A stretch of 64,000 nt of DNA from assembly GCA_016783555.1 (NCBI GenBank), contig JADHWH010000002.1:2037-66036 (forward strand). The letters run 5' to 3'. Position numbers and translations under genes: made by a program. Of the stretch, positions 1 to 51,904 are shown one piece after another. The DNA comes from Candidatus Omnitrophota bacterium (GTDB lineage Bacteria > Omnitrophota > Gorgyraeia > JABMRJ01). The notes beneath the pieces are model-generated. The model saw only the letters and a program-made list of their open reading frames with translations. It had not been told where the DNA came from and did no database searches. Position 1 is the stretch's first letter. Each line of letters starts with the position of its first letter.

Positions 1-1
1 A

Positions 2-121
2 AAGCTTCAAAAAGGAACATTGAAAGGCGCCGAGAGTCTATGTAAACCCGGTTCAGGAAAAGGCTATGGAATAGAAAAGACCATATGCGATCATCCAAAT
101 GAGGAAAATCACAAACACTAA
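2..121 (+). CDS. 3' end of an upstream ORF entering from the window edge (product unknown)
   Basis: Frame 2 is open from position 2 to TAA at 119-121 (40 codons, ...GSGKGYGIEKTICDHPNEENHKH). No recognisable domain. Confidence 0.2.
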   Translation, partial: KLQKGTLKGAESLCKPGSGKGYGIEKTICDHPNEENHKH

Positions 122-140: not shown

Positions 141-515
141 ATGAAAATTTGCGTTACTTCTGAGGGGGGCAATTTAGATTCTAAGGTCGATCCCCGTTTT
201 GGCAGGTGTCAGTATTTTATCATTGTAGACACCGATACTCTAGCGCTTGAGGCGATAGAGAATCCGAATATCGAATCAATGGGCGGCGCGGGAATTCAAT
301 CCGGCCAGTTTGTTGCGGAAAAAAAAGTAAAAGCAGTGCTTACTGGCAATGTCGGACCCAATGCTTTTCAGACTTTGCAGTCAGCTGCGGTAGACGTGGT
401 TACCGGGATTTCAGGTACCGTTAAAGAAGCCGTAGGAAAATATAAAAAGGGCGAATTGAAACCAACACAAGGCCCGAGCGTAAGTTCGAAATTTGGCATG
501 CCGCCAAACAAATAG
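141..515 (+). CDS. NifX/NifB-C-terminal-like (dinitrogenase FeMo-cofactor-binding domain) protein
   Basis: Strong SD AGGAGGAGG upstream of ATG. 124 aa with MKIxVxSxG...FGRxxYFIIVD architecture typical of the NifX/NafY small-domain family. Heads a cluster with MinD-ferredoxin ATPases. Confidence 0.8.
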   Translation: MKICVTSEGGNLDSKVDPRFGRCQYFIIVDTDTLALEAIENPNIESMGGAGIQSGQFVAEKKVKAVLTGNVGPNAFQTLQSAAVDVVTGISGTVKEAVGKYKKGELKPTQGPSVSSKFGMPPNK

Positions 516-545
516 GGAGAATTAAAAATACAGGGGGTGGATAAA

Positions 546-770
546 ATGCCAGGTGGAAACGGAACAGGACTATTCGGGCAAGGCTCGGGAAGAGGCAGAG
601 GTATGGGAAGAGGCGGCGGAAGAGGTAGAATGGGTGGAAATCGTCCAGGTGCAGGGCCAGGCGGAAATTGTATTTGCCCTAGTTGTGGCGCAAAGGCACC
701 TCACCAAGCTGGGGCACCATGTGGTTCCTTAGAATGCCCGAAATGCGGAAACAGGATGATACGGGAGTAG
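546..770 (+). CDS. DUF5320-like Gly/Arg-rich protein with C-terminal zinc ribbon
   Basis: MPGGNGTG start followed by GRGRG low-complexity stretch, then CPSCG...CPKCG (CxxC-x16-CxxC). ATG at 546 has SD GGGGGTGG; the track start at 537 is GTG in the same frame. Confidence 0.6.
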   Translation: MPGGNGTGLFGQGSGRGRGMGRGGGRGRMGGNRPGAGPGGNCICPSCGAKAPHQAGAPCGSLECPKCGNRMIRE

Positions 771-773
771 TTC

Positions 774-1385
774 TTGGAAGAGAGATTGTTAGAAAACCAC
801 AAAAGATATTTAGAGAGAATGAACTTTTACAAGGATTTTGGCTATGATGTTGAAAAGGAGAGAAAGTTTATTTTAGAAAAGTCCTATCCTCTTTTTGGTG
901 ATATATTAGAAGTTGGAACAGGCAAAGGATATTTTACTGTTGAGCTTGCCAGGGAAGGGTATGATTTTGTAAGCGTAGATGTTTCCAGCGAAGAGCAAGA
1001 ATTTGCCAGACTCAATATAAAGTATTTTGGCTTTGAGAAATTCGTGGACTTTAGGATAGAGAACGCAGAGTCTTTAAGTTTTGGTAATTCCAGTTTTGAT
1101 ATAGTGTTTTCCATAAACACAGTACATCATCTTACTAATCCGGTCAAAGTAACAGAGGAGCTGATAAGGATAACTACCCCTGAAGGAAAGATTGTCTTGA
1201 GCGATTTTACCGAAGATGGCCTGAAAATTATAGACAAAATCCACGCTTCAGAAGGAAAGGTGCACGAGGCGGGACGGATAAGCTTATCAAACGTGGGTGA
1301 TTATTTGGAGGAGAGGAGATTTGGTGTTGAGAGGCACAGAGACAAATTTCAAGAGGTCCTTATTGCATACCACCAAATCGTATAA
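774..1385 (+). CDS. class I SAM-dependent methyltransferase
   Basis: Motif I LEVGTGKGYFT, acidic motif FVSVDVS, motif III-like FDIVFS. TTG start at 774 (alternative in-frame ATG at 819). Confidence 0.7.
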   Translation: MEERLLENHKRYLERMNFYKDFGYDVEKERKFILEKSYPLFGDILEVGTGKGYFTVELAREGYDFVSVDVSSEEQEFARLNIKYFGFEKFVDFRIENAESLSFGNSSFDIVFSINTVHHLTNPVKVTEELIRITTPEGKIVLSDFTEDGLKIIDKIHASEGKVHEAGRISLSNVGDYLEERRFGVERHRDKFQEVLIAYHQIV

Positions 1386-1390
1386 TAGCT

Positions 1391-2227
1391 ATGATTATTT
1401 CAATTGCTAGCGGAAAAGGCGGAACAGGAAAGACCACGATAGCTACTAGTCTTACACTTTCTATAAATAACGGTGTCCAACTATTAGACTGTGATGTAGA
1501 AGAGCCGAATGCACATATTTTCTTAAAACCTAGAATTAAGCAAAGCACCACTGTTTCTATTCCAGTGCCAAAAATAGATGAATCGAAGTGCACCTTTTGT
1601 GGTAAATGCGCAGAAATTTGCGCTTACAACGCCCTGGCCGTTCTTAATGATAGAGTTTTAACATTTCCTCATTTATGTCATGGATGCGGAGGCTGCAGTC
1701 TTATGTGTCCCAACAAAGCAATTACAGAAGTCGATAAAGAAATAGGAGTTGTCGAGATTGGCACCTCAAATAAACTACAATTCATACATGGAAAGCTGAA
1801 TATTGGGGAAGTAATGTCTCCACCCTTAATCATGGCAGTCAAAGAGTACATTAATCCAACGAGAATAGCAGTTGTAGATGCCCCGCCGGGAACATCCTGC
1901 CCTGTCGTTGAAGCAGTTAAGGGGAGCGATTTCTGTATTCTGGTTACTGAACCAACCCCTTTCGGCTTAAACGACCTGATACTAGCGGTAGAGATTCTAA
2001 GGAAATTAAATATACCCTTTGGAGTCGTAATAAACCGTTCTGATATAGGGGATGATAAGTTAAACAGTTATTGCAAAAAAGAGGGCATCTCTGTCTTAAT
2101 GCAGATCCCTCTTAAAAAGGAGATAGCCATTGCTTATTCAGATGGTGTTACTATTGTAGAGGCATTTCCATACTACAAGAAGGCATTTACCGCGCTATAT
2201 GAAAAAGTTGCGAGAAGGGTACGATGA
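1391..2227 (+). CDS. MinD/ParA-superfamily P-loop ATPase with inserted 2x[4Fe-4S] ferredoxin domain (CooC/Mrp-like)
   Basis: Deviant Walker A GKGGTGKTT; CTFCGKCAEIC and CHGCGGCSLMC cluster motifs; Walker B-like ILVTEP. Confidence 0.85.
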   Translation: MIISIASGKGGTGKTTIATSLTLSINNGVQLLDCDVEEPNAHIFLKPRIKQSTTVSIPVPKIDESKCTFCGKCAEICAYNALAVLNDRVLTFPHLCHGCGGCSLMCPNKAITEVDKEIGVVEIGTSNKLQFIHGKLNIGEVMSPPLIMAVKEYINPTRIAVVDAPPGTSCPVVEAVKGSDFCILVTEPTPFGLNDLILAVEILRKLNIPFGVVINRSDIGDDKLNSYCKKEGISVLMQIPLKKEIAIAYSDGVTIVEAFPYYKKAFTALYEKVARRVR

Positions 2228-3069
2228 AACAAATAGTGATAATAAGCGGAAAAGGCGGAACAGGTAAGACGATACTAACCGCATCATTTGCTGCTTTATC
2301 TAAGAATGCAGTATTTGCAGACTGCGATGTAGATGCGGCAGACCTACATTTATTATTAAATCCTAATATAAGAGAAAGACACGAGTTTAGAAGCGGAAAG
2401 ACCGCAAGAGTTGATAAGGAACTGTGTCAGCAATGCGAAGAGTGCGTAAGAGTTTGTCGTTTTGCCGCAATAGATACAAATATTATAGTTGATCCTATTT
2501 CATGTGAGGGATGTGGTGTCTGTAGTTATATTTGCCCGGTTGGGGCAATTAAAATGGAAGAAAACATAGCCGGAGATTTGTTTATATCGGATACAAAATA
2601 TGGCCCGATGGTTCATGCAAAGCTAGGCATAGCAGAAGAAAATTCAGGCAAACTTGTTACATTAGTTAGGCAAAAGGCAAAAGAGATGGCTGAAAGGAAT
2701 AACAGCTCCAAGATCATTATTGACGGTCCACCCGGGATAGGGTGCCCAGTGATCGCCTCTTTGACAGGTGCAGATCTAGCCGTGATAGTTACAGAACCTA
2801 CGCTTTCAGGTATCCATGATATGGAAAGAATAGCTGATGTTACTAAACATTTTGGTATTCATGCTAAGGTAGTCGTAAATAAATACGATATTAATTTGAG
2901 CAACACTCAAATAATTAAAAGGGTATGCCAGGGCAGAGATATGGAGGTTATAGCTCAGTTACCCTTTTCAGAAGATGTAAGCCGTTCATTAGTTAAGAAA
3001 ATACCCATCGTAGAATATTGCAATGAAAGAATATCAAAGGATATTATCGGACTATGGAAGAAGATTTAA
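2224..3069 (+). CDS. MinD/ParA-superfamily P-loop ATPase with inserted 2x[4Fe-4S] ferredoxin domain (paralog)
   Basis: GKGGTGKT Walker A; CQQCEECVRVC and CEGCGVCSYIC; ATGA overlap with the upstream paralog. Confidence 0.85.
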   Translation: MKQIVIISGKGGTGKTILTASFAALSKNAVFADCDVDAADLHLLLNPNIRERHEFRSGKTARVDKELCQQCEECVRVCRFAAIDTNIIVDPISCEGCGVCSYICPVGAIKMEENIAGDLFISDTKYGPMVHAKLGIAEENSGKLVTLVRQKAKEMAERNNSSKIIIDGPPGIGCPVIASLTGADLAVIVTEPTLSGIHDMERIADVTKHFGIHAKVVVNKYDINLSNTQIIKRVCQGRDMEVIAQLPFSEDVSRSLVKKIPIVEYCNERISKDIIGLWKKI

Positions 3070-3434
3070 CCAGTTATCCTGAAAATATTATAAAGTTTGC
3101 TAAAGACCCAAAACACTTTGGCAGAATGACAGATCCCACGAGCGCGGCATGCATCAAAGGCCCGTGCGGTGACGAAATGGAAGTGTATCTAGTTATTAGT
3201 GATAGAGTGATAAAAAACATCAAATTTTATACTAAAGGGTGCATCGCTACAGTTGTTTGTGGATCTGCGGTTGCTCAACTGGCTTCAGGAAGATCTGTTG
3301 ACGAGGCCTTAGGCATTTCTCCGAAACAGGTCATAGACATGTTAAACGGGCTGCCGGAAGACCGCTGTCATTGCTCGATTTTGGCTGTCAGTACTCTTCA
3401 TAGAGCTATCGCAGATTACCTGCTTAAGAAATGA
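3054..3434 (+). CDS. IscU/NifU N-terminal-domain Fe-S cluster scaffold-like protein
   Basis: Aligns to IscU by eye: GPCGDEM, KGCIATV, HCSILA...AIADY (three ligand Cys plus His). Confidence 0.8.
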   Translation: MEEDLTSYPENIIKFAKDPKHFGRMTDPTSAACIKGPCGDEMEVYLVISDRVIKNIKFYTKGCIATVVCGSAVAQLASGRSVDEALGISPKQVIDMLNGLPEDRCHCSILAVSTLHRAIADYLLKK

Positions 3435-3449
3435 ATTTAGCTAAATAAT

Positions 3450-4160
3450 ATGCAGATAAAAATACTTTTTGATAGCATGGCTTTGGATAAGAGATTTCAA
3501 ACCGGATGGGGTATTTCATATTTAATTGATGGAACAATTCTATTTGATACAGGCGAGAAATCAAGCTCGTTGCTTAGAAATATGAGAAATATGGGCGTAG
3601 ATGCCCCCAGTTTAAAAACAGTAGTTATCTCTCATGACCATTGGGATCACAGAGGCGGGTTGTGGGGGATTTTGAAAGAAAATCCCAAACTAAAAGTTTA
3701 TGCCTGCCCAAATTTTAGTAAAAGATTTAAGAATAGGGTCAGATTTTATAGTGGTCAACTAATCGAAGTTGATAAATTTACTCAAGTGTACAAAAATCTC
3801 TATACAACCGGAGAAATAAAAGGAAGATACGACGGTAAGCGCATGCCAGAGCAAAGTTTGATTTTAGCGGCATCTAAAGGTTTAGCTATTCTTACAGGTT
3901 GTGCCCATCCAGGGATAATAAGGATTGTTGAAAATGTAAAACGAAGCATATCTGGCAATATTTATCTTGTTATGGGCGGTTTTCATCTAGTTGGCAAGCA
4001 TAAAGAGACAATTAAAGCCATTGTCGGCCAATTTAAACGCTTAGGCGTAAAGAAAATTGCACCTTGCCATTGCACGGGGAAAAATGCTACAAAGTTATTT
4101 AAAGAAGCATATGGCGATAATTTTATTGAAGTAAAAGTTGGTGAAGTAATAGAGATATAA
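3450..4160 (+). CDS. MBL-fold metallo-hydrolase
   Basis: HxHxDH motif (SHDHWDH) with downstream His/Asp ligands (CAHPG, GGFH, CHCTG). Confidence 0.75.
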   Translation: MQIKILFDSMALDKRFQTGWGISYLIDGTILFDTGEKSSSLLRNMRNMGVDAPSLKTVVISHDHWDHRGGLWGILKENPKLKVYACPNFSKRFKNRVRFYSGQLIEVDKFTQVYKNLYTTGEIKGRYDGKRMPEQSLILAASKGLAILTGCAHPGIIRIVENVKRSISGNIYLVMGGFHLVGKHKETIKAIVGQFKRLGVKKIAPCHCTGKNATKLFKEAYGDNFIEVKVGEVIEI

Positions 4161-4232: not shown

Positions 4233-4526
4233 ATGGTTATTCCAAGAAGCAATTATTTTAAGAGTATACTGCTCTTAATAGTTATAATCTTTATATTTCT
4301 GTCTGTGGGGGTAGAATTTCTGCATAATCACAGCGATTCGGAATTTCATAATGACTGCCCTGCATGTATTTGGCTAATCAATTTGGTATTTATCTTTTTT
4401 GTTTTCCTTCTTCTTCCAGGTATATTGTTGCGTTTTGGACACATTTCTTTAAATTTCCTGCGGATTTTCATAAGTAAAACCTACCAAGCCTTACAACGCC
4501 CTCGCTCTCCGCCAAGTTTAGTATAA
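4233..4526 (+). CDS. hypothetical small membrane protein
   Basis: 97 aa with two hydrophobic helices separated by an HNHSDSEFHNDCPAC segment. No family recognised; could be non-coding. Confidence 0.3.
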   Translation: MVIPRSNYFKSILLLIVIIFIFLSVGVEFLHNHSDSEFHNDCPACIWLINLVFIFFVFLLLPGILLRFGHISLNFLRIFISKTYQALQRPRSPPSLV

Positions 4527-4593
4527 CCCATAAAATTACTAATCTTTCCCAAGACTTATCTTTATTTATTAAAATAGAAGGGGGGAAGTGTAG

Positions 4594-6006
4594 ATGAGAA
4601 AAATTTCGATTTTTATGTTTTCTGTTTTTACATTTGTATTTTTTTCGATGACTCCCTGTGCGCTGTCCCAGGAGAAAAAAGATGATGAAATTGCAGAATT
4701 GAAAACGCTTATCAAGGGTCTAAAAAGCGAAATCGATGAAATGCAGAGATGCCATAGGCAAGAAGTGAATGCCTTGAGAGAAGATATAAGAGAAATCCGC
4801 GAAACTCGCGGCATTGCGGCAAAAGAAGAGTCTGACGTTGAAGCATTACGACGCCTTGCCCAAGAGGAGGCCGTGAAAGAAGAGGAGAGAAAAGAGCCCG
4901 ATGACACTGTATTTAAACATGGCGGGCTTGCCCTGCAAAAACTTAATCCGGAGATAAGCATTACAGGGGACATGGTTAACGCATATACGGTTGACGCCGC
5001 TACCGATAGGTACGATTTTGATTTTAGAAACCTTGGCATACATTTTGAATCCTATCTCGATCCGTATACACGTTTCAAAGCCGCTATTCCGGTCACTACA
5101 AGTTCGGCTAGCATAGGAGAGGCATATTTAACACGATATGGCGTTTTAAAAGACGTTAATCTTACTATGGGTAAGTTTAGGCAGCAATTCGGTGTTGTTA
5201 ACCGATGGCACAAACATGCCTTAGATCAGGTTGATTTTCCTCTTGTATTGCGTCAAATATTCGGCAATGGGGGCCTTAATCAATCCGGAATATCACTTGA
5301 TTGGACTATGCCGACCTTATTCGGCTCATCGCAGGAGCTTATAGTGCAAGGCACCAATGGTGAAAACGATCGTGTTTTTTCCGGAAATGTCATAAGTATC
5401 CCAAGCGTCTTAGCGCGTTATAAAAATTATAGAGATCTGTCTAAAAATACATATCTTGAATTGGGCCTCACAGGACTTCTTGGTTGGAATAGAGACTGGG
5501 ATGTGAGGATGGGAGGGGCAACTATTACGAAGAAAGATTACAAACACGCCGCCTGTTTTGGCGCTGATTTCACAGTGCTTTGGGAACCGACTGAGCGTAT
5601 GCGGCACCGCAATCTTGAATGGAGGAGTGAGCTCTATTGGCTTAACAAGGGTATTTTGGCCCCTGATGATTCAGGTAGCGACACGCTCAACGCCTGGGGG
5701 ACTTACAGCTATCTACAAGCCAAGGTATCGCGGACGCTAGATATCGGTATCCGCGGTGATTTCTATATGCCCGATGATAAAGATTATGCTAGTGTTCCCG
5801 GCCTTTCCCTTGCGCCACTTGCTCATACTGAAGATAATGCATATCAATGGCAGATCGGTCCGTATATTACGTGGTGGCAAAGCCCTTTTGTGAAATTCAG
5901 GCTGGAATATAATCATTTGGACGGAGAACGCCTTGCCGAGCCTGAAGACAAGATAATGCTCCAGGCTGTATTTGCTGTTGGTCCACACAAGCATGAAAGA
6001 TACTAA
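4594..6006 (+). CDS. putative outer-membrane beta-barrel (porin-like) protein with N-terminal coiled coil
   Basis: Signal peptide (FFSMTPCALS), about 70-aa heptad/charged coiled coil, then a long domain of alternating amphipathic strands rich in Y/W/G/N. Heads the metal ABC operon. Confidence 0.5.
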   Translation: MRKISIFMFSVFTFVFFSMTPCALSQEKKDDEIAELKTLIKGLKSEIDEMQRCHRQEVNALREDIREIRETRGIAAKEESDVEALRRLAQEEAVKEEERKEPDDTVFKHGGLALQKLNPEISITGDMVNAYTVDAATDRYDFDFRNLGIHFESYLDPYTRFKAAIPVTTSSASIGEAYLTRYGVLKDVNLTMGKFRQQFGVVNRWHKHALDQVDFPLVLRQIFGNGGLNQSGISLDWTMPTLFGSSQELIVQGTNGENDRVFSGNVISIPSVLARYKNYRDLSKNTYLELGLTGLLGWNRDWDVRMGGATITKKDYKHAACFGADFTVLWEPTERMRHRNLEWRSELYWLNKGILAPDDSGSDTLNAWGTYSYLQAKVSRTLDIGIRGDFYMPDDKDYASVPGLSLAPLAHTEDNAYQWQIGPYITWWQSPFVKFRLEYNHLDGERLAEPEDKIMLQAVFAVGPHKHERY

Positions 6007-6023
6007 TGATATGGAGGGTAATC

Positions 6024-7091
6024 ATGAGAAGAGTATGCTTAGTTATGTTATTCTTACTGATTATAGTATGCTGTTATCAGAGTGCGGGCATTTGTGAAGG
6101 CAAAAGTCTCCTCAGGGTGGTGACAACACTTCCTGACTACGCATTTTTTGTAGAGAGAATAGGAAGAGAGCGCGTTTCCGTAACTCATATAGTCCATGGA
6201 GACCAGGATGCGCATTTCATTCGCCCTAAGCCTTCCTTCGTTACTCTTGTCCGTGATGCGGATGTATTGATTTCAACCGGATTAGATCTTGAACTATGGT
6301 TGCCAACGATCATAAATAAATCCGGCAATACTCATATTCGCAGCGGACAACCTGGTTACGTTTCAGCCGCGCACGGTATGAACCTTTTGGAAAAGCCGAT
6401 GACTATATCAAGGATAGAGGGCGGCGTTCATATTTACGGCAATCCGCACGTTACCTCGAGCCCCATTAATATGAAGATTGCCGCCCGCAATATCGCAACC
6501 GGCCTGATTAAAAATGACCCCGAAGGAAAGGAAGTGTATCTGGCAAATCTTAAGAATCTGCTGGATGAGATAGACAGACGTCTTTTTGGTGAGGAGCTTG
6601 TTCAGATTCTTGGGGGTGATACTTTATGTAGTATGGCCGAAAAGAGGACATTGATACCGTTTCTTAAGAAGCGTAAGTTACATGATAAGCCACTCATTGA
6701 CTATCTTGGCGGATGGATGAAGAAAACACTTTTTATTCGGGACACTTCCATTGTTACTTATCACAAGAACTGGGTTTACTTTTTAAGGCTATTCGGCCTT
6801 GAAGAAGCCGGGACTATAGAGCCGAAGCCGGGAATCCCCCCATCACCTAAACATGTGACAGGCCTTGTTGAGTTGATGCGCGCGAGAGATCTTAGAGTTA
6901 TCCTTGCAGCAAATTACTTCGATGAACAAAAGATCCGGACGGTTGCTAATAAAGTGGATGCCGAAGCGGTGATTGTCCCGCTTTACGTTGGCGGCGAGGC
7001 GGGTGTTAAGGACTATTTTCAGCTTGTTGACCGCTGGATCAATGGTCTTATTGCCGCGTATCATGAAAAAGGCCTTTTGAATAGGGGGTAA
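6024..7091 (+). CDS. metal (Zn/Mn/Fe) ABC transporter substrate-binding protein, TroA/ZnuA family
   Basis: Signal peptide/lipobox-like N-terminus and TroA-family His ligands (VTHIVHGDQDAHF). SD GGAGGG before ATG 6024 (track start 6006 is in frame). Confidence 0.8.
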   Translation: MRRVCLVMLFLLIIVCCYQSAGICEGKSLLRVVTTLPDYAFFVERIGRERVSVTHIVHGDQDAHFIRPKPSFVTLVRDADVLISTGLDLELWLPTIINKSGNTHIRSGQPGYVSAAHGMNLLEKPMTISRIEGGVHIYGNPHVTSSPINMKIAARNIATGLIKNDPEGKEVYLANLKNLLDEIDRRLFGEELVQILGGDTLCSMAEKRTLIPFLKKRKLHDKPLIDYLGGWMKKTLFIRDTSIVTYHKNWVYFLRLFGLEEAGTIEPKPGIPPSPKHVTGLVELMRARDLRVILAANYFDEQKIRTVANKVDAEAVIVPLYVGGEAGVKDYFQLVDRWINGLIAAYHEKGLLNRG

Positions 7092-7110
7092 CACTCAAAC
7101 GGAGGTCGGG

Positions 7111-7923
7111 ATGTCAGAGACCTTAAGTTTTTTTGCGATACAGATTACATTTTTGGCAGTGGTTCTAATTCTACACACCTATCTTGGGCTTCACGTCATC
7201 AGGCGAACCATTGTCTTTTCGGATCTTGTGCTTGATCAACTGGCGGCCTTTGGCGCCTTGGTCGGGATAGGGATAGGGATCCGATACGGAACAGCGAGTT
7301 CCTACCTGGTTTCGTTGATAGCCGTTATTTTTGGCGCTGTGCTGCTTGCTGTAATTAAACCCAAGAATCGATTGATACCAAGAGAAGCCGTTATCGGCAT
7401 AATGTATGCCTTAGCCCTTGCGGCATCCCTTTTATTAGCGGACAAACTTTCAGGGGGAGAGACTTATGTTACCAAGACCCTTTCCGGTTCTATGTTGTGG
7501 GTAACCTGGCCTCTTGTTATCGCAACAGTCGTTGCTTATATAATTTTATTATTGTTTCACTTCAAATTCCGTAGTCAGTTTATAACTTTAACCGAAAAGA
7601 AACTCATTATTAAAAATGAGAGATTCTGGGACTTTTTATTTTTTACCACCCAAGGTATTATTACGGTTCTTGTTGTTCCGATTGCCGGGGTTTTGCTGGC
7701 TTACGCATTTCTTATGATTCCGGCAGCGATCGTTGCGATGTTTACGAGAAAATGGGCCATTGCCGTGGCAATAGGATGGGGTATAGGGTTTATGGCCTGC
7801 ACGATAGGCCTTTTTGCCTCATATTTCTTCGATCTGCCTTATGGGCCTAGTCTTGTTTTATCATTGGGAGGTTTTTTTGTATGCGCTGTGATTATTCGCG
7901 CCTTTTTGCCGCAAAGGGCCTGA
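7111..7923 (+). CDS. metal ABC transporter permease (ABC-3 family, TroC/ZnuB-like)
   Basis: Polytopic; conserved YLGxHVIxRxxxFxxDxLxQxAAxG N-terminal ABC-3 signature. Confidence 0.8.
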   Translation: MSETLSFFAIQITFLAVVLILHTYLGLHVIRRTIVFSDLVLDQLAAFGALVGIGIGIRYGTASSYLVSLIAVIFGAVLLAVIKPKNRLIPREAVIGIMYALALAASLLLADKLSGGETYVTKTLSGSMLWVTWPLVIATVVAYIILLLFHFKFRSQFITLTEKKLIIKNERFWDFLFFTTQGIITVLVVPIAGVLLAYAFLMIPAAIVAMFTRKWAIAVAIGWGIGFMACTIGLFASYFFDLPYGPSLVLSLGGFFVCAVIIRAFLPQRA

Positions 7924-7940
7924 TCTGAAAAAGAAAGGAT

Positions 7941-8786
7941 TTGGCTATGCCACAACTCATTCAAATCTTTAGCCAACCGTTTTTAGTGTGCCTAACGATG
8001 GTCTTCATTTTGGGCTATATGGGTATCCATGTTCTCAAGAGAGAGGTAATATTCATTGACATTGCTCTGGCTCAGATTGCGGCAGTAGGGGCAATTGTTG
8101 CCCATGTTGCCTTTGAAGCGCACGGAGATTCACTTTTTAGTTATTCTTTCGCATTTGGTTTTACGCTGGTTGCATCCGTTTTCTATTCTCTCGTTCGTAG
8201 GAAGGTTAATCAGATCCCATTAGAGGCGGTTATCGGCATTTCCTACGCGATCGCGGCCGCAGCAGCGCTCTTTCTGGTTGGGATAGCTCCGGGCGGCCAC
8301 ATTCATGTGCACCAGATGCTATCCGGAAGTATTCTCTGGGCAACATGGAAAGACTTTTTATTATGTGTTTTTGTTTTTTCGGTAGTCGGTTTTTGCTTCT
8401 ACGTTTTCCGAAAACCCTTTAAGGAGATATCTGATAATTACGAAGCCGCTCTCAAGAAAGGAATAAAAGTAGTGTGGTGGGATTTTCTCTTCTATGCGTT
8501 ATTCGGCATTGTGATCACACTGGCTGTTAGGATTGGCGGCGTGGTGGTAATTTTTGCCTTCCTTATCATACCGGCAACAATCTCTTCCTTATTTTCTTCA
8601 AATTGGGTAAGGCGTTTGGTTATTAGCTGGGTAATCGGTGTAGGAGCGATAGTAGCGGGACTCTTGTTTGCAGACCATTTCGATTTTTCTATTGGTTCCT
8701 CTATTTCCTTTTTTCTGGGAGTGGCATTGGTTTTTGCTGGGCTTTTTCGGATAGGCCGACAGCGTATTGCTATAGCAAAAAAATGA
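7941..8786 (+). CDS. metal ABC transporter permease (ABC-3 family, TroD-like)
   Basis: Paralog of the upstream permease (YMGIHVLKREVIFIDIALAQIAAVG). Confidence 0.8.
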   Translation: MAMPQLIQIFSQPFLVCLTMVFILGYMGIHVLKREVIFIDIALAQIAAVGAIVAHVAFEAHGDSLFSYSFAFGFTLVASVFYSLVRRKVNQIPLEAVIGISYAIAAAAALFLVGIAPGGHIHVHQMLSGSILWATWKDFLLCVFVFSVVGFCFYVFRKPFKEISDNYEAALKKGIKVVWWDFLFYALFGIVITLAVRIGGVVVIFAFLIIPATISSLFSSNWVRRLVISWVIGVGAIVAGLLFADHFDFSIGSSISFFLGVALVFAGLFRIGRQRIAIAKK

Positions 8787-9634: not shown

Positions 9635-10051
9635 ATGTCAGAATTATTTAGATTTGGAGTTTCATTGCCGAAGGGATTACTTAATAAGTTCGATGAACTT
9701 ATTAAGAAGAGAAGTTATTCTAACCGCTCCGAAGCGTTTCGCGACTTAATCCGCAACGAATTAATAAAGAAAGAGTGGCAAGAGGGTAAAGAGATCGCAG
9801 GAGCAATAATCCTCATTTACGATCACCATAAAAGAGAACTGGTTAACAAACTCGTGGACATTCAGCATGATTACCAGAATCTAATTGTTTCCGCTCAGCA
9901 TATTCACTTAGATCATAGTAACTGTTTAGAGATGATTGCGGTGAAAGGCAAGCCCAAAAATGCTCAAAAACTGGCTGACACGTTGAAATCAGTAAAAGGC
10001 GTAAAGCATGGAATCTTAAGTATGTCAAGTACAGGCAAAAGGCTTGCGTAA
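9635..10051 (+). CDS. nikR: nickel-responsive regulator NikR (ribbon-helix-helix + metal-binding ACT-like domain)
   Basis: RHH N-terminus (RFGVSLPKGLLNKFDELIKKRSYSNRSEAFRDLIR) and C-terminal H..H..C nickel-site residues (HHKRE, HIHLDH, NC). Confidence 0.8.
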   Translation: MSELFRFGVSLPKGLLNKFDELIKKRSYSNRSEAFRDLIRNELIKKEWQEGKEIAGAIILIYDHHKRELVNKLVDIQHDYQNLIVSAQHIHLDHSNCLEMIAVKGKPKNAQKLADTLKSVKGVKHGILSMSSTGKRLA

Positions 10052-10115
10052 GCGGTAATATTTTTTTGTTCTTTAGTAACACGAATTTAGGAAACGTAGT
10101 AACAGGGGGGTGGTA

Positions 10116-11399
10116 ATGAAAAGAGTATTGTTTTTATGTGGGTTTATGGTTCTCATTGTCTCAGCAGGCGTCTTTGCCGATGAAGGTGAGGTAACGACGA
10201 AAGATCTTATGAAAGAAATACAGTACCTTAAAAATAGAGTGAAGGAGCTTGAGGACAAGGTCGAACGGCAGGAGGTGACTTTAAAGAAGCAGGAAGAGGA
10301 GGTAAAAGAGACGAAAAGCGTGTTTATAAAGTATGAACCCGGAGAAGGCATATCTATCGAACCTACCGGCCCGTCATTAAGCGCAGGTGCTACCGTTGTT
10401 ACTCAAATGGCACTCGATCCAAATACAGCAAATGATGCATCCGGGGATAATGATGTCACCGATGCAAGTTACAGTATTGACATCGAGATAGAACAAGAGA
10501 TAGGCGAGATCGGCCTTGCGTATCTTCATCTTGAAGGCGGCGAGGGGGCCGGCCTAGATGGTGATGAGATAGCCACATTCAGCGGGGTCAACAGGGACGC
10601 CGGAGACAGCGGCAGCCACGTCGACATAACAGAGGTATGGTACGAGCATTACCTGTTCGATAAGATGCTTACCCTGCGGGGCGGAAAACTTGATCCGACT
10701 GTTGTTCTTGATACTAGCGCTATCGCAAACGACGAATGCACGCAGTTTTTATCAGCGACTTTCAGGAACTCGACTGCGCTCGAGTTCCCAGATGATAATG
10801 CCTATGGCATCTGGACAAATATCGAACTTTTTGAATGGATGGCTTTAGAGGGCGGGATCTATGATGACAACGCAGACTGGGAAGATCCCTTAAGAGATAT
10901 GTTTACTTATGCCCAGCTCAATATAAAGCCAGGACTTTTTGGCAGAGAAGGTAATTATAGAAATTACTTCTGGTACGATGATTCAAACCATACCAAGTGG
11001 GATGATCCCGGCACGACTACACAGCCCAATTTCGGATTCGGTATAAGCTGCGACCAGAAGATTCTCGACTATCTTACCTGGTTCGGCAGGTGGGGGTGGG
11101 AGGACCCCGATGTGTCGGTGGTTGAATGGGCATGGAGCACAGGACTTCAAGTTGACGGTACCCCCTGGGGCAGAGATAATGATTACTTAGGGGTAGCGAT
11201 TGGAATGGATATTGCAAGCGATGATTATGAAAACGCCGGCAATCCCGGAGATGCCGAAGGGCATGTTGAGCTATATTACAATATCCACCTAAACGACAAT
11301 GTCAGCATATCGCCGAATTACCAGCTTGTTTGGAATCCCAACGGAGAAGACAGGGATCCTATAAATATATTTGGATTAAGAAGTCAAATCGATTTTTAA
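10116..11399 (+). CDS. putative outer-membrane beta-barrel protein with N-terminal coiled coil (paralogous architecture to 4594..6006)
   Basis: Signal peptide, coiled coil (LKNRVKELEDKVERQEVTLKKQEEEVKE), acidic Asp/Gly-rich region, C-terminal strand ending ...GLRSQIDF (terminal Phe). SD GGGGGG before ATG 10116. Confidence 0.5.
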   Translation: MKRVLFLCGFMVLIVSAGVFADEGEVTTKDLMKEIQYLKNRVKELEDKVERQEVTLKKQEEEVKETKSVFIKYEPGEGISIEPTGPSLSAGATVVTQMALDPNTANDASGDNDVTDASYSIDIEIEQEIGEIGLAYLHLEGGEGAGLDGDEIATFSGVNRDAGDSGSHVDITEVWYEHYLFDKMLTLRGGKLDPTVVLDTSAIANDECTQFLSATFRNSTALEFPDDNAYGIWTNIELFEWMALEGGIYDDNADWEDPLRDMFTYAQLNIKPGLFGREGNYRNYFWYDDSNHTKWDDPGTTTQPNFGFGISCDQKILDYLTWFGRWGWEDPDVSVVEWAWSTGLQVDGTPWGRDNDYLGVAIGMDIASDDYENAGNPGDAEGHVELYYNIHLNDNVSISPNYQLVWNPNGEDRDPINIFGLRSQIDF

Positions 11400-11412
11400 A
11401 AGGAGGTGAATT

Positions 11413-12051
11413 ATGCACATTCCGGACGGTTTTTTAGCGGCGAATACATGGATACCTGCCTGGATCTTGTCTATCGGCGGTTTAGGATTTTGCATAAAGA
11501 AAGCGCAGGAGGCTTTGAAGGAGAAACTTATACCGCTGATGGGCGTTGTAGCGGCCTTTATCTTTGCCGCTCAGATGTTGAATTTTCCTGTGGCCGGCGC
11601 TACATCCGGTCATCTTTTAGGAGGGGTATTGGCGGTTGTGCTGCTGGGTCCATACGGCGGGGCCATAGTAATAGCTATAGTCCTTGTTATACAATGCCTA
11701 GTCTTTCAAGACGGAGGTGTTACAACTTTAGGGGCAAACATCTTTAATATGTCTATAATCGGATCCATGGGAGGCTATTATCTTTACAATGTGATTAGAA
11801 AAAGGATAGATGGTGACAGGGGCATATTGATAGGTACGGCTATAGCCGCATGGTTATCTGTTGTAGCAGCATCAGCCTTCTGCGCTGTTGAGTTGGCCAT
11901 ATCAGGGACATCGCCGCTACATATCGCTCTCCCGGCAATGGCTCTGGTTCATATGCTTATAGGGATAGGTGAGGCTATAATAAGCGTGCTTGTCGTCTCA
12001 TTTGTATTGAAAACGAGGTCTGACTTAATATATAATAAGGAGGAACTATGA
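11413..12051 (+). CDS. cbiM: Ni/Co ECF-type transporter substrate-capture subunit CbiM/NikM
   Basis: Canonical MHIPDGFL N-terminus and polytopic profile. Confidence 0.85.
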   Translation: MHIPDGFLAANTWIPAWILSIGGLGFCIKKAQEALKEKLIPLMGVVAAFIFAAQMLNFPVAGATSGHLLGGVLAVVLLGPYGGAIVIAIVLVIQCLVFQDGGVTTLGANIFNMSIIGSMGGYYLYNVIRKRIDGDRGILIGTAIAAWLSVVAASAFCAVELAISGTSPLHIALPAMALVHMLIGIGEAIISVLVVSFVLKTRSDLIYNKEEL

Positions 12052-12335
12052 AGCCGCAAGACATTATTATCGGTTTAGGAATAGCTTTTATTCTCGCTAT
12101 ATTTATTTCTCCGTTCGCGTCACCTTTTTTGGATGGTTTAGAGAAGGTAGCTGAACAAAAGGGGTTTCTGGAGAAAGGAGAAGAGGCGGTATTGAGCTCG
12201 CCCATTCCCGATTACATCTGGCCTGGCGTTAAAAATGAAGGAGTGGCTACAGCTATAGCTGGTGTGGCCGGGACAGTAGTTACTTTTTTTGCAGCATGGA
12301 GCCTGGCCTTGCTTTTGAGGCGCTCCCAGCCTTAA
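12048..12335 (+). CDS. PDGLE-domain membrane protein (CbiN/NikL-like accessory subunit)
   Basis: SPFLDGLEKVAEQ (PDGLE motif) flanked by two TM helices; ATGA coupling to cbiM. Confidence 0.6.
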   Translation: MKPQDIIIGLGIAFILAIFISPFASPFLDGLEKVAEQKGFLEKGEEAVLSSPIPDYIWPGVKNEGVATAIAGVAGTVVTFFAAWSLALLLRRSQP

Positions 12336-12353
12336 GACACTGAAAGAACTTTC

Positions 12354-13127
12354 ATGGAACACTTATTTATAGACCAATATAGTGGCCTCGATAGCATTAT
12401 TCACCGGTTGGATCCTAGGACAAAGATAGTAACGCTTATTATCTTTGTCATTTTTATAGTCCTGACTCCACCCACTTATTTTCTGCAGTTTTTGTTATAC
12501 TTTGTTGTTATAGGAGGCCTAATTTTACTGTCCAAGGTTCCGTTTATCTTTGTGTTTAGAAGAGTCCTGGCGGTAATGCCATTTGTTATAGTGATAGGAT
12601 TATTTATACCTTTTATTAAGGAAGGAGAGATAGCCGGTGCATATTCGCTTGGTAACATAAAATTAAACGTTACATATTCAGGCCTTATCATTTTTTGGAA
12701 CATATGTATAAAGGCATTTTTGACAGTTATGTGCCTTACGCTTCTAACATCTACAACATCATTTCCGTTTTTCCTGAAAGGGCTTGAAAAATTATGGGTT
12801 CCAGGCATTTTTATTATGGTACTTTCTTTTATGTATCGATATCTATTTGTGAGTATAGATGAATTAATGCGCATGAAACATGCGAAAGACTCAAGGACCA
12901 TCAAGCCTAAAAGACTCTTTGAAATCAAGACATTAGCGAATATGCTGGGCAGCCTTTTTATAAGAAGCTACGAACGGGGCGAAAGCGTTTATCTTGCCAT
13001 GTGCTCAAGGGGTTTTAATGGAAGTATAAAGACATTGGACAATTCCTCTTTCGGGTACAAAGATGCTATTTTCAGCGTCGGATTAACATCCATTCTTGTT
13101 TTGATACGATTGACGGGGATTCTATGA
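12354..13127 (+). CDS. cbiQ: ECF transporter transmembrane component CbiQ/NikQ
   Basis: Polytopic 257 aa between the M/N and O components; CbiQ-like topology. Confidence 0.75.
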   Translation: MEHLFIDQYSGLDSIIHRLDPRTKIVTLIIFVIFIVLTPPTYFLQFLLYFVVIGGLILLSKVPFIFVFRRVLAVMPFVIVIGLFIPFIKEGEIAGAYSLGNIKLNVTYSGLIIFWNICIKAFLTVMCLTLLTSTTSFPFFLKGLEKLWVPGIFIMVLSFMYRYLFVSIDELMRMKHAKDSRTIKPKRLFEIKTLANMLGSLFIRSYERGESVYLAMCSRGFNGSIKTLDNSSFGYKDAIFSVGLTSILVLIRLTGIL

Positions 13128-13858
13128 ATGATTTAGCGCTTGAAGTGAAGAATTTGAGTTTTACATACCCGGATGGTACACAAGCCCTAAGTGGTATAAA
13201 CTTTTCAGTAAGAGACGGAGAGCGTGTCGGTTTTATAGGCGGAAACGGGGCCGGCAAGTCAACACTCCTATTGCACTTAAATGGTACGCTGAGGAGCAAC
13301 GGTAGCGTAAAGATATTTGGCCTTGAGATAAATGACAAGAACATTCATTGCATAAGAAAGAGAGTCGGGCTCATCTTTCAAAATCCTGATGATCAACTCT
13401 TTATGCCGACTGTATTTGACGATGTCTCTTTCGGGCCTGTAAACATGAATTTAGAAAAAGACGAAATTATTAGGCGTAGCAGGGAAGCATTGAGTGTGGC
13501 CGGCATGGAGCATAACATAAAAAGATCAAGCCATCATTTGAGTTTTGGCGAAAAAAAGAGGGTCTCCTTTGCTACAGTGCTTTCGATGAAGCCGGATATT
13601 ATTTTACTGGACGAGCCTACGGCAAACCTGGACCCGGGAGGAAGGCGAGAACTCATAGATTTCTTAAAGACTATCAAGACTACCAAAATAATAGCCAGCC
13701 ATGACCTCGAGATGATATATAGACTCTGCGGTAGAACTATGCTTCTCAATAAAGGCAGAATAATAGCAGACGGCGAAACGCAAGAGATGCTCATAGATAA
13801 AGAGCTTCTCGAATCCAACGCGCTGGAAGCCCCTCTCGCTTTATATCTATCGGGATAA
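13124..13858 (+). CDS. cbiO: ECF transporter ATPase CbiO/NikO
   Basis: Walker A GGNGAGKST, ABC signature LSFGEKKRV, Walker B ILLDEP. Confidence 0.85.
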   Translation: MNDLALEVKNLSFTYPDGTQALSGINFSVRDGERVGFIGGNGAGKSTLLLHLNGTLRSNGSVKIFGLEINDKNIHCIRKRVGLIFQNPDDQLFMPTVFDDVSFGPVNMNLEKDEIIRRSREALSVAGMEHNIKRSSHHLSFGEKKRVSFATVLSMKPDIILLDEPTANLDPGGRRELIDFLKTIKTTKIIASHDLEMIYRLCGRTMLLNKGRIIADGETQEMLIDKELLESNALEAPLALYLSG

Positions 13859-14120
13859 TCAAGATTTAATCCTTGTGCTCAGATGAAATAGCACCTACCC
13901 AAAACAAAAATCTTCTAACTTGCTTGAAGTCATCCGTCTGACAAAGTCCTTGCCGCCAATAGGGTTTAATGATATCATAATACCAAAAGGCGGTAAAAAC
14001 GTGAAAACGTGAACTAAAACGTGGAGTGGGGGCCATTTCGTATATAAAACAGGCCGAATCTTGGCACCTTTTCAAAATAGGGGTCCCCAAAATGCAAAAT
14101 GACTAAAGAGGAGATAAAGA

Positions 14121-14621
14121 ATGGCTAAAGAAAATTCATCGTTCGATATTATCGCGGAAGCGAACCTTCAGGAGGTAGACAACGCTGTTAATCAGACAAA
14201 GAAGGAGCTTTCGCAGAGATTCGATTTTAAGGGAAGTAAAGCTTCGATAGAATATAACCGCAATGAAAAGAAGATAACGCTGATCGGAGATGATAATTTT
14301 AAATTGCGCGCCCTTAAAGACATTTTTGCCACTAGACTTGCCAAGAGGGGGGTTTCTATAAAACTCCTGATATTTAAAGAACCGCAGAAGGTTTTCGATG
14401 GCTGTATTCAGCAGATAGTCGATCTTGTATCAGGAATACCCCACGAGAAAGCAAAGGAGATCACCAAGATAATAAAAAAACTGGGACTCAAAGTCCAGGT
14501 CCAGATAGAGGGAGAGAAGATAAGGGTATTTTCTCCAAAAAAAGATAACCTCCAACTTGTAATAGCGCACCTGCGAAAAATAGACTTTCCAATAGCACTT
14601 ACTTTTTGTAATTATAGGTAG
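14121..14621 (+). CDS. yajQ: YajQ-family (UPF0234) nucleotide-binding protein
   Basis: Collinear with E. coli YajQ: SFDIIAE.NLQEV.NAVNQ...SQRFDFKG...KLKVQVQIEGEKIRV. Confidence 0.8.
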   Translation: MAKENSSFDIIAEANLQEVDNAVNQTKKELSQRFDFKGSKASIEYNRNEKKITLIGDDNFKLRALKDIFATRLAKRGVSIKLLIFKEPQKVFDGCIQQIVDLVSGIPHEKAKEITKIIKKLGLKVQVQIEGEKIRVFSPKKDNLQLVIAHLRKIDFPIALTFCNYR

Positions 14622-25981: not shown

Positions 25982-26058
25982 TGGCGCGCCTGGCAGGACT
26001 CGAACCTGCAACCAAGTGGTTCGAAGCCACCTACTCTATCCATTGAGCTACAGGCGCG
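25982..26058 (-). tRNA. tRNA-Arg (anticodon TCG)
   Basis: Reverse complement folds as a cloverleaf with anticodon loop CTTCGAA, T-loop GTTCGAGTC, CCA end encoded. Confidence 0.85.
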
Positions 26059-26350
26059 GGATCAACTTCAACTTAACCGGCGGGCTTCTCGTTGTCGTCG
26101 CCGGTCAACGACTTTTGCGCGTTCTTGAATTCCTTTATAGCCTTCCCCAGAGACCTTGCTATTTTAGGCAAGTTTTTAACATCGAACAAGACAAGGCAGA
26201 TGACCAATATTACTATAATCTCGGGAAGGCCTATCCCAAACATGAAGACCCCTTTTTGTTATTACAAGAATAGCATATGCGCGCCGAAAATTCAAGATTA
26301 AAAACGTTGACTATCCCATACAATATTACTATAATATTACCATATAAAAC

Positions 26351-26428
<78 letters not shown>

Positions 26429-26585
26429 GAATTGCTACTTTGAAATTCATCGGGTGTTGTGAGAGGATTCGAAGCGAGCGAGCGCCGAGCAAAGCGAGGA
26501 TAAGGCCGATAGCCGCGAAGCGGCGAGGCCGTAAGCGAGTGAGGGGAGCCTACGCAGCGAGCGCATAAGCGCGAGCGTAGTAGGC

Positions 26586-26606
26586 GAATCCTCTCACCCC
26601 GACCAG
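26586..26606. repeat. 21-bp perfect direct repeat of the tRNA-Pro 3' end (GAATCCTCTCACCCCGACCAG); att-like scar
   Basis: Identical to 26409..26429. A partial inverted copy (GTGAGAGGATTCGAA) lies at 26460..26474. Confidence 0.8.
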
Positions 26607-26614
26607 GGTAACGT

Positions 26615-26691
26615 GCGCCTGTAGCTCAGTTGGATAGAGCATCTGCCTTCTAAGCCGAGGGTCGCAGGTTCGAATCCTGCCAGGCGTACCA
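26615..26691 (+). tRNA. tRNA-Arg (anticodon TCT)
   Basis: GCGCCTGTAGCTCAGTTGGATAGAGC...anticodon loop CTTCTAA...GGTTCGAATCC...ACCA; one mismatch in the anticodon stem. Confidence 0.8.
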
Positions 26692-26794
26692 ATTCCGCCA
26701 AAGGCGGAAATGATCCTGAGCGAGTACTTGACATCGAAGATGTCAAGTACGAAGCGAAGGACCTTAAGATATTTCGCCGAAGGCGGAAATTTAC

Positions 26795-26872
26795 GGTGGG
26801 TGTAGCTCAGTTGGTCAGAGCACTTGACTGTGGCTCAAGTGGTCGGGAGTTCAAGTCTCCTCACCCACCCCA
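26795..26872 (+). tRNA. tRNA-His (anticodon GTG) with encoded G-1
   Basis: Extra 5' G pairing with discriminator C; anticodon loop CTGTGGC; CCA encoded. Confidence 0.85.
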
Positions 26873-32405: not shown

Positions 32406-32408
32406 CAT

Positions 32409-51582: not shown

Positions 51583-51669
51583 TAAAAGAAGCGTTTGCCA
51601 GATTGAGATTAACCTTGAGATATTTCGGCGCATAAGATATAATAATAAAACTAAAATCAGGAGCAAGAT

Positions 51670-51903: not shown

Positions 51904-51904
51904 A

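Follow-up and report, generated by a model that had tools for sequence, protein, structure and literature searches.

In this work, a 64,000-nt stretch of DNA from a Candidatus Omnitrophota bacterium (contig JADHWH010000002.1 of assembly GCA_016783555.1, positions 2,037–66,036, + strand; "the window" below means this whole stretch) was analysed, and the gene cluster at window positions 141–4160 is very probably an operon of the orange-protein (ORP) type, i.e., an Omnitrophota variant of a known system. The original prediction, made from the letters of the sequence, had singled out this cluster as a not-yet-described system. This did not stand, because the ORP complex and operons of Desulfovibrio are built around just this core, a NifX-type protein together with two MinD-ferredoxin ATPases. 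The further statement that no function had been assigned was nearly right, as the ORP authors themselves call the physiological role of the complex "unclear" (PMC8359166), but one model sulfate reducer has already yielded the purified complex and a map of its regulation. The metal-cluster theme of the prediction is plausible.

Searches against Pfam and NCBIfam and the inspection of motifs bore out the predicted list of seven genes and their domains, namely a NifX-type protein, a Gly/Arg-rich protein, a methyltransferase, two MinD-ferredoxin ATPases, an IscU-type scaffold and a metallo-β-lactamase (MBL) fold protein. The seven open reading frames (ORFs; g1 to g7) all lie on the + strand and are spaced by −16 to +33 nt. 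Their tight packing had been described correctly, but of the several ATGA overlaps announced only one was found, between g4 and g5; g5 and g6 overlap by 16 nt, and the remaining junctions are gaps of 3–33 nt. The operon is incomplete in the window, being cut off at the left edge, and window positions 1–121 hold the 3′ end of another NifX-type gene, here named NifX2. The part beyond the edge was read from L001, one of three metagenomic contigs returned by an exact look-up of g4, which matches the window with 0 mismatches over 12,227 bases (window base 1 is L001 base 8611) and carries a Fur-family gene, a DUF5320 gene and NifX2 directly 5′ of g1. The window holds the 3′ seven genes of a ten-gene operon (fur-like, DUF5320, nifX2 and g1 to g7), as follows:

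Fur-family gene: L001 7437–7907, upstream of the window; 156 aa, PF01475 match on record.
DUF5320 gene: L001 7963–8250, upstream of the window; 95 aa, PF17253 match on record.
NifX2, full gene: L001 8333–8731, starting outside the window; 132 aa, Di-Nase-type NifX domain.
NifX2, 3′ end: window 1–121, + strand; last 39 codons and stop at 2–121, with frame 2 open from the edge and TAA at 119–121.
g1: window 141–515, + strand; ORP-type NifX-domain protein, 124 aa; PF02579 (Nitro_FeMo-Co), E = 3.6e-24.
g2: window 549–770, + strand; 73 aa, Gly/Arg-rich with a zinc-ribbon-like C-terminus of six Cys and one His; no significant Pfam match.
g3: window 774–1385, + strand; class I S-adenosylmethionine (SAM) methyltransferase, 203 aa, TTG start; PF08241 (Methyltransf_11), E = 4.6e-20.
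g4: window 1391–2227, + strand; MinD/SIMIBI-type P-loop ATPase (CbiA/ParA) with an inserted 2x[4Fe-4S] ferredoxin domain.
g5: window 2224–3069, + strand; MinD-ferredoxin ATPase, paralogue of g4, in ATGA overlap with it.
g6: window 3054–3434, + strand; paralogue of the IscU/NifU-N-type Fe-S scaffold, 126 aa; PF01592 (NifU_N), E = 2.2e-24.
g7: window 3450–4160, + strand; MBL-fold protein of the TM1679/7dck family, 236 aa, end of the operon; PF00753 (Lactamase_B), E = 3.5e-8.

Between DUF5320 and NifX2 (L001 8254–8308) there is a hairpin with no clear U-run. The 101-nt segment around it (L001 8240–8340) has a minimum free energy of −28.4 kcal/mol (z = −2.9), which none of 200 shuffled sequences equalled. 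It might raise the ratio of DUF5320 expression to that of the downstream genes, or it might be a processing site.

A cluster named after the orange protein was reportedly described in Desulfovibrio by Fievet in 2011. The reference used here was the locus of Desulfovibrio sp. X2 (L084), which was reached by a search with the sequence of PDB entry 2wfb, the D. gigas orange protein, and whose ORP is 72% identical to that protein. Its genes run in the order PAS-sigma54 activator, two Gly/Arg-rich proteins, ORP, ATPase a, ATPase b and a NifX-type protein. The product of g4 is 42% identical to ATPase a (E = 3e-82) and 28% to ATPase b, and that of g5 is 45% identical to ATPase b (E = 2e-87) and 29% to ATPase a. 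As judged by these identities, g4 and g5 and the two ATPases that stand, in the same order, beside a genuine Desulfovibrio ORP gene are reciprocal best matches and one-to-one orthologues; such paralog-for-paralog orthology means that the duplication is older than the divergence of these phyla. The g1 protein, in turn, is 42% identical to the ORP of Desulfovibrio sp. X2, and its best PDB match is 2wfb (E = 6.2e-22, 112 residues aligned), with which it shares the motifs DPRFGR and GAG. The next matches were MTH1175 (1eo1; E = 2.2e-18) and then TM1290, and no NifX or NafY structure appeared among the PDB matches of g1 at E < 0.01. HFGRC and a C-terminal CDH are both present in NifX2, and the protein matches the NCBIfam model for MrpORP (NF041136) in its Di-Nase domain (E = 7.2e-28, model positions 265–363 of 365). 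The ORP complex of D. vulgaris consists of Orp3, Orp4, Orp5, Orp8 and Orp9, of which the paralogues Orp3 and Orp4 each contain two [4Fe-4S] motifs, and Orp8 is homologous to the orange protein that carries a Mo-Cu-S cluster; Orp3, Orp4 and Orp8 co-purify, and MrpORP passes Fe-S clusters to them in vitro (PMC6345978). The control of the Desulfovibrio orp operons by OrpR, sigma54 and integration host factor (IHF) has been dissected (PMC8359166; PMC3897727), and the genes were said to be "specifically found in anaerobe bacteria" (PMC3897727).

Each ATPase of the pair has two complete CxxCxxCxxxCP motifs (PF01656, E of about 1e-14; Fer4, E of about 1e-11). In g4 these account for eight ferredoxin Cys, next to a deviant Walker A motif (SGKGGTGKT) and a conserved switch II motif PPGTSCP. 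A search with Foldseek, for which an AlphaFold2 model of g4 (pLDDT of 78) was used, retrieved only SIMIBI ATPases (MinD, ApbC, Cfd1, BchL, NifH, HypB and CooC), and neither the PDB nor the Foldseek search returned a solved structure with a ferredoxin insert like that of g4 and g5. The MrpORP model is matched by both proteins at the Walker A region only (44 bits against a cut-off of 450). A conserved switch II Cys lies 7 residues past the Walker B Asp in g4 and g5, a distance equal to the spacing of Asp125 and Cys132 in NifH. The equivalence of this Cys with NifH Cys132 was considered and dropped, because the MAFFT alignment with NifH misaligned the region and did not confirm it; only the equal spacing is left.

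A scan of one genome per species, with alignment of g4 homologues, yielded 80 loci (81 with L001), and all ORFs within ±8 kb of g4 were clustered into families; a locus was counted as fully flanked if each side extended for 5 kb or more (35 loci). The 80 loci span about 17 phylum-level groups of bacteria and archaea, among others Omnitrophota, Planctomycetota, Chloroflexota, Desulfobacterota, Bacillota, Ignavibacteria, WOR-3, Zixibacteria, NC10, Acidobacteriota, Verrucomicrobiota, Leptospirales and three archaeal lineages. The predicted conservation was thus confirmed, and the neighbourhood is no random juxtaposition, as g5 adjoins g4 in 80 of the 81 loci. The ORP-type g1 family was present in 71/81 loci and the Di-Nase-type NifX2 family in 63/81. 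Less constant were DUF5320 (44/81 loci; 24/35 fully flanked), a Mrp/NBP35 carrier that matches the MrpORP model at E = 4e-91 (41/81; 24/35), an FmdB zinc ribbon (34/81), the g2 family (31/81; 15/35), IscU-like proteins (29/81), g7-type MBL proteins and radical SAM proteins (19/81 each), DUF134 (17/81), ARMT1-like proteins (16/81) and Fur (14/81). When loci were picked via g2 homologues instead, g2 stood directly upstream of the ATPase pair in 3/3, with the same companions. The conserved core is the ORP-type NifX protein or proteins with the ATPase pair, and all else is accessory. Some ORP clusters (L087, 8143–9489; L088, 9633–10979) have, between or after the ATPase genes, a gene for a 448-aa pyridine-nucleotide disulfide oxidoreductase composed of Pyr_redox_2 and a dimerisation domain. 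In L086 and L087, a 2x[4Fe-4S] ferredoxin of 55–57 aa is encoded between the ORP gene and g2.

The most useful new leads are the fusions of ORP domains with Gly/Arg segments and the link to IssA. The start of g2 was placed at ATG 549 and not at GTG 537, because its homologues begin with MPxGDGTGP. The protein has the N-terminus MPGGNGTG, 32% Gly, an isoelectric point (pI) of 10.2 and the conserved pattern CxCPxCG-x5-H-x4-PC-x5-CPxCG (six Cys, one His). It sits where orp5 does in the order orp5-orp4-orp3; in other genomes g2 and the g4 gene downstream of it are 1 nt apart or overlap. The family comprises 595 homologous 90%-identity clusters at E ≤ 1e-3, with a typical length of 74 aa. The original prediction had called g2 "DUF5320-like", and this label is fair, since about a quarter of the listed g2 homologues have a precomputed match to PF17253 and one is named "DUF5320 family protein"; g2 itself, however, stays under the Pfam threshold (10.9 bits, E = 1.1, over the N-terminal 40 residues only; cut-off 27 bits). 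A hidden Markov model (HMM) of the N-terminal 26-mer of DUF5320 picked up 11 of 17 motif-bearing members of the g2 family at E < 1e-3. The underlying peptide, MPxG(D/N)(G/R)TGP, is common to DUF5320 proteins, the g2 family and short orphan Gly/Arg proteins, and it was counted in 66 of 2,369 ORFs of the + strand and, for comparison, in 2 of 2,574 antisense ones. In DUF5320 it is followed by a disordered basic region (32% Gly, 14% Arg+Lys, 22% aromatic and 0% acidic residues, pI 11.3) and a C-terminal coiled coil.

The same kind of cationic segment also occurs within ORP-domain proteins. A Gly/Arg(/Met) tail in the same chain was found in 10 of 95 ORP-domain ORFs (10 of 72 loci). In L005 (9428–10000), the ORP domain, a Gly/Arg stretch and a zinc ribbon of the g2 type form a single ORF, and in L027, L036, L046, L077 and L079 the ORP domain is followed by (GMGRG)n repeats and a DUF5320-like C-terminal coiled coil. 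In the locus of Desulfovibrio sp. X2, too, a Gly/Arg tail is attached to a NifX-like protein, and a 112-aa Gly/Arg/Gln protein is encoded besides. In L071 (8984–9553), a divergent NifX-like domain is fused to a Gly/Lys tail, with an MPKSDGTGP motif in the interior of the chain. The tail of g1, by comparison, is 19 residues long and not Gly/Arg-rich, so that an IssA-type cationic tail is absent from this chain. IssA of Pyrococcus furiosus is a thioferrate iron-sulfur storage protein, in which a NifX (IPR003731) domain is followed by a cationic tail (21% Gly, 10% cationic and 20% aromatic residues, pI 10.7) proposed to wrap the anionic thioferrate; an uncharacterised mesophilic "IssX" clade also has Gly-rich tails, and MTH1175 was assigned to the IssA clade (Vaccaro 2017; PMC5524996). 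No paper connecting DUF5320 with ORP or IssA was found in the literature search.

The regulatory region differs from that of Desulfovibrio. The best NCBIfam match of the upstream Fur-family protein, which contains HHHHLVCTSC and CNGC, is the Fur model (128.9 bits, under the cut-off of 220). A near-consensus sigma70-type promoter (TTGACA-17-TAAACT) lies 5′ of fur. The inverted repeat TGAAAATnATTTTCA (≤2 mismatches) has only two sites in about 72.6 kb of contiguous L001 and window sequence: the first (L001 7406–7420) comes right after the fur promoter, and the second (L001 7926–7940) is within the 56-bp spacer between fur and DUF5320. Equivalent boxes were present beside the cluster-linked fur genes of seven other loci, in six taxon groups of the tally (Omnitrophota twice). 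No sigma54 site resembling TGGCAC-N5-TTGC was detected upstream of the operon genes, and an Rfam scan returned no riboswitch, including any molybdenum cofactor (Moco) or other metal riboswitch. From the promoter and the two Fur-box-like sites, with neither a sigma54 site nor a riboswitch, the transcription unit is taken to run from fur to g7, and it is probably autoregulated by its own Fur-type repressor. Enhancer-binding proteins of sigma54 occurred in 14/81 loci, mostly of Desulfobacterota, and they were never found together with Fur in fully flanked loci (0/7 vs. 11/28). The ferrous iron uptake genes feoA and feoB (window 51668–53670) have no cluster-type Fur box, and none (≤2 mismatches) exists anywhere in the window, a hint at local action of the ORP-linked Fur paralogue, as opposed to that of the global iron regulator. 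Co-regulation of feoAB and of the ZnuA/ABC-3 genes that follow the operon was considered but is not supported, as no cluster-type operator was present at ≤2 mismatches.

Further observations concern the Fur proteins and the 5′ border. Cluster-linked Fur proteins are unusual in having about 20 extra residues at the N-terminus, an extension that reads roughly PPWWHG(K/R)FRG(C/G)GYR (seen in L001, L004, L005, L008, L009, L011, L020, L061 and L086), and two Omnitrophota proteins start with MPRG(N/D)GTGP ahead of it. A module common to this extension and DUF5320 was tried, but the HMM of the DUF5320 26-mer gave E = 0.06 for one Fur protein and nothing for the other; therefore, no homology is claimed. 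Immediately 5′ of the fur promoter (L001 5445–7069) there are genes for a helix-turn-helix protein and a tyrosine recombinase (Phage_integrase), and with these genes adjoining it the operon may border a mobile element or island.

The accessory genes are of different kinds. The g3 methyltransferase scored far under the NCBIfam cut-offs (e.g., 42.9 bits against 155 for the DVU_1556 family) and is a lineage-specific insertion between g2 and g4. The original prediction had seen a dedicated assembly system in the added IscU-like and methyltransferase genes. The methyltransferase is indeed restricted, occurring in 8/81 loci, mostly of Omnitrophota (5) and Planctomycetota (2), with one in Leptospirales, but the IscU-like gene is not special to this genome, being present in 16/35 fully flanked loci. 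The g6 protein is a divergent IscU paralogue, since it scores under the equivalog cut-offs (TIGR03419, 96.9 bits against 187.9; TIGR01999, 62.9 against 192.4); its ligand motifs PCGD (Cys-Gly-Asp), GC and HC are kept across 34 cluster-linked homologues. A general replacement of Mrp by IscU was also considered, and no anticorrelation was found (Fisher p = 0.72); the two are not mutually exclusive, and therefore such replacement is a local statement only. The g7 protein, with HDHWDH at residues 62–67 (the HxHxDH motif), is assigned to the TM1679/7dck family of MBL-fold proteins by its PDB matches (7dck, E = 4e-42, residues 2–235; 3h3e (TM1679), 7.5e-35; 2p4z, 6.6e-31). These relatives were deposited without a functional name, and the literature search found nothing on 7dck, nor on COG1149, COG1433 or DUF134. 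Genes of the g7 type occurred in 12/35 fully flanked loci.

We tentatively hypothesize that the operon encodes an ATP- and redox-driven carrier or store for anionic metal-sulfur species, a mechanism which, taken as a whole, we hold with slightly less than even confidence. The ORP-type g1 and the Di-Nase-type NifX2 would non-covalently carry an anionic inorganic metal-sulfur species, possibly a thiometalate, or else a polymer or cluster of the Fe-S or thioferrate-like kind. Binding of such species has been demonstrated for homologues, with Mo-Cu-S on ORP (PMC6345978) and thioferrate on IssA (PMC5524996). The cationic g2 and DUF5320 proteins may neutralise or cap the cargo in trans, as the Gly/Arg/aromatic tail of IssA does in cis; the fusions and the composition of these proteins point to this role. 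The products of g4 and g5 would bind the ORP protein as a heterodimer, an ATP-sandwich (SIMIBI) ATPase, co-purification being known from D. vulgaris, and ATP-driven switching with the four [4Fe-4S] clusters could load, reduce or release the cargo. The g6 protein would be an Fe-S donor or acceptor, in the place held by the Mrp/NBP35 carrier in most other loci; such exchange is suggested by the conserved ligands and by the frequency of IscU and Mrp genes in the clusters, and it could run in either direction. The Fur-family repressor with its two predicted operators would tie expression to metal status, probably that of iron, and g3 and g7 would be lineage-specific accessories.

Several points weigh against this hypothesis. 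What was observed here is orthology, conserved synteny, gene fusions and predicted operator sites; the mechanism of the window proteins is read from their sequences and homologues, and the cargo is a conjecture. The only ORP-bound species characterised is a Mo-Cu-S cluster and not an Fe-S one (PMC6345978), and the ORP authors, for whom the role is unclear, favour a link to cell division (PMC8359166). The Foldseek search with g4 cannot separate NifH-like electron transfer, MinD-like positioning and a CooC/Mrp-like insertase. The likeness of DUF5320 and g2 to the IssA tail is compositional, their homology is not demonstrable from the sequences, and the Gly/Arg stretch of g2 is without the aromatic residues of IssA (Trp, Tyr and Phe at 1–3%). 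Mrp and IscU occur together in 10 of the 35 fully flanked loci (Fisher p as above). Fur-type repression usually means induction at low iron, so mobilisation fits better than storage, and the effector of the Fur-like protein could be another metal or peroxide.

A more specific form of the idea is that the ORP core and the DUF5320-type proteins are a widespread split form of the IssA/IssX architecture, which, driven by ATP and electrons, builds and mobilises a protein-coated inorganic thioferrate-like store in anaerobic bacteria and archaea. The Gly/Arg proteins would then be a counter-ion coat, the MinD-ferredoxin heterodimer a motor for loading and unloading, and the lineage-specific regulators (Fur-like, OrpR and DUF134) would each be dedicated to the locus. 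We consider this unlikely, but if true it would give a function to both the orange-protein complex and DUF5320.

Less probable again is a role in cell division or cargo positioning, in which g4 and g5 would act as MinD/ParA ATPases with a DUF5320-type partner that stimulates the ATPase, comparable to MinE, ParB or McdB, and the Fe-S clusters would be redox sensors. The ORP complex has been called "putatively involved in cell division", loss of OrpR causes morphological defects, and MrpORP is polar (PMC6345978; PMC8359166). The top Foldseek matches of g4 include MinD, FlhG, FleN, ParA and McdA, but NifH, BchL, ApbC, HypB and CooC score as high as MinD. McdB-type partners have the layout of DUF5320, that is, an N-terminal peptide, a disordered basic region and a coiled coil, and g2 is translationally coupled to g4 in many genomes; however, the Gly/Arg proteins are fused to the NifX domain and not to the ATPases (10 loci). 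The constant partners of the pair are NifX-domain cofactor carriers, and the frequent ones are the Fe-S proteins Mrp and IscU, whereas no division or segregation genes recur near the cluster in the 81 loci. No evidence of a MinD-type membrane-targeting helix was found.

Buffering of thiometalates (Mo/W-Cu-S) has a similarly low probability. In sulfidic cells, ORP proteins would here sequester tetrathiomolybdate- or tungstate-copper species, with the ATPases serving the delivery or detoxification of Mo, W or Cu. The sole chemically defined ORP ligand is indeed [S2MoS2CuS2MoS2]3− (PMC6345978), g1 is closest to the D. gigas protein, and the neighbours in the window (ZnuA/ABC-3 and NikR-OprB-CbiM) serve transition-metal uptake. 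On the other hand, no genes for Mo, W or Cu transport or cofactors (mod, moa/moe, cop) recur in the 81 neighbourhoods, where the recurrent accessories are Fe-S carriers; the regulator is Fur-like, even if under the cut-off of its best NCBIfam model (Fur, 129 bits), and the riboswitch scan was negative for Moco and other metals.

Slightly less probable still is a maturation or insertion machinery for one client metalloenzyme, analogous to NifX/NifEN/NifH or to CooC for carbon monoxide dehydrogenase. Such pathways use the NifX-like, SIMIBI ATPase and IscU families, and a radical SAM gene accompanies 19/81 loci. The original prediction had proposed to find a co-occurring client enzyme by neighbourhood analysis, but no candidate recurs beside the cluster within ±8 kb in 81 loci; the other families in at least six loci are regulators, small zinc ribbons, ARMT1-like, DUF364 and TrmO-like proteins, the pyridine-nucleotide disulfide oxidoreductase is limited to a few loci, and the gene lists of the source contig include no nitrogenase-like genes. 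Chance juxtaposition of unrelated genes in one genome can be dismissed, as the same genes recur in the same order in about 17 phylum-level groups, and gene fusions and overlaps of stop with start codons occur among them.

Downstream of the operon, and outside the conserved ORP core, ORF and domain calls gave a group of metal-uptake neighbours (window 4233–8786, + strand). It consists of a 97-aa membrane protein, a 470-aa signal-peptide protein without a Pfam family, a ZnuA-type binding protein and two ABC-3 permeases, and no gene for an ATP-binding cassette ATPase was called nearby. In L086 (Candidatus Aureabacteria, 11289–14225), the order MBL, 97-aa, 478-aa and ZnuA likewise follows the ORP cluster, at 32–69% identity; the 470-aa protein was matched in only 1 of the 80 other loci. 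From about window 9665–12051 onward there are genes for a NikR-like regulator, an OprB-family porin and CbiM/PDGLE (Ni/Co uptake of the energy-coupling factor type). Since these come after ZnuA/ABC-3, the stretch is rich in genes of transition-metal homeostasis. Elsewhere in the window, four tRNA genes are clustered at 25985–26869 (one on the − strand, three on the + strand), and at 30858–35320 a hybrid histidine kinase-GGDEF-PilZ protein is encoded directly 5′ of the genes for a type II secretion/type IV pilus ATPase (T2SSE/MshEN) and platform protein (T2SSF).

The operon was also compared with characterised systems. The g1 protein has the same Pfam domain (PF02579) as the nitrogenase carriers NifX and NafY, but nitrogenase-like genes are missing from the source contig gene lists and these carriers from the PDB matches of g1. 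With the SIMIBI metal ATPases (NifH, BchL, CooC and HypB), g4 and g5 share the fold and the deviant Walker A motif with its signature lysine, whereas their Fe-S clusters are predicted to reside in the inserted ferredoxin domain and not at a bridging site. The D. gigas orange protein is the best solved relative of g1, yet the identity is only moderate, and the Mo-Cu-S cluster was demonstrated for the Desulfovibrio protein only. The tailed ORP proteins of 10 ORP-cluster loci have the architecture of IssA, i.e., a NifX domain and a cationic Gly/Arg segment in cis, and MTH1175 of the IssA clade is the second-best PDB match of g1. In the window operon the cationic segments are kept on separate proteins (g2 and DUF5320), of which g2 adds a six-Cys zinc ribbon and is without aromatic residues. 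Compared with MrpORP (Orp9; NF041136), NifX2 resembles the C-terminal Di-Nase domain, and the fused Mrp P-loop part is missing from the gene list of the operon.

The closest comparison is with the ORP system of Desulfovibrio vulgaris Hildenborough (Fievet 2011; Pardoux 2019). Common to both are a NifX-domain ORP with two adjoining paralogous MinD-type ATPases that have two [4Fe-4S] motifs each, a small Cys-containing gene 5′ of the ATPase pair (orp5-orp4-orp3 vs. g2-(g3)-g4-g5, with g2 a candidate counterpart of orp5 by its position), a NifX domain of the Di-Nase type, a transcription factor of their own that apparently controls this locus only, and the restriction to anaerobic lineages. In contrast, the window operon is single and co-directional, and Desulfovibrio has two divergent operons; a Fur-family regulator with Fur-box-like operators takes the place of the PAS-sigma54 OrpR and IHF; the Di-Nase domain stands alone, with no Mrp/NBP35 P-loop gene in the operon; and DUF5320, IscU-like, methyltransferase and MBL genes are extra. 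For the window alone the gain is modest, as the conserved cluster has already been named. The ORP family is present in thousands of anaerobe genomes, and its genes are arranged in several ways, that of Desulfovibrio being one: most loci add DUF5320-type Gly/Arg proteins and Fe-S carriers (Mrp, IscU) to the ORP core, and the constant unit across the phylum-level groups is the ORP-type carrier with its ATPase pair.

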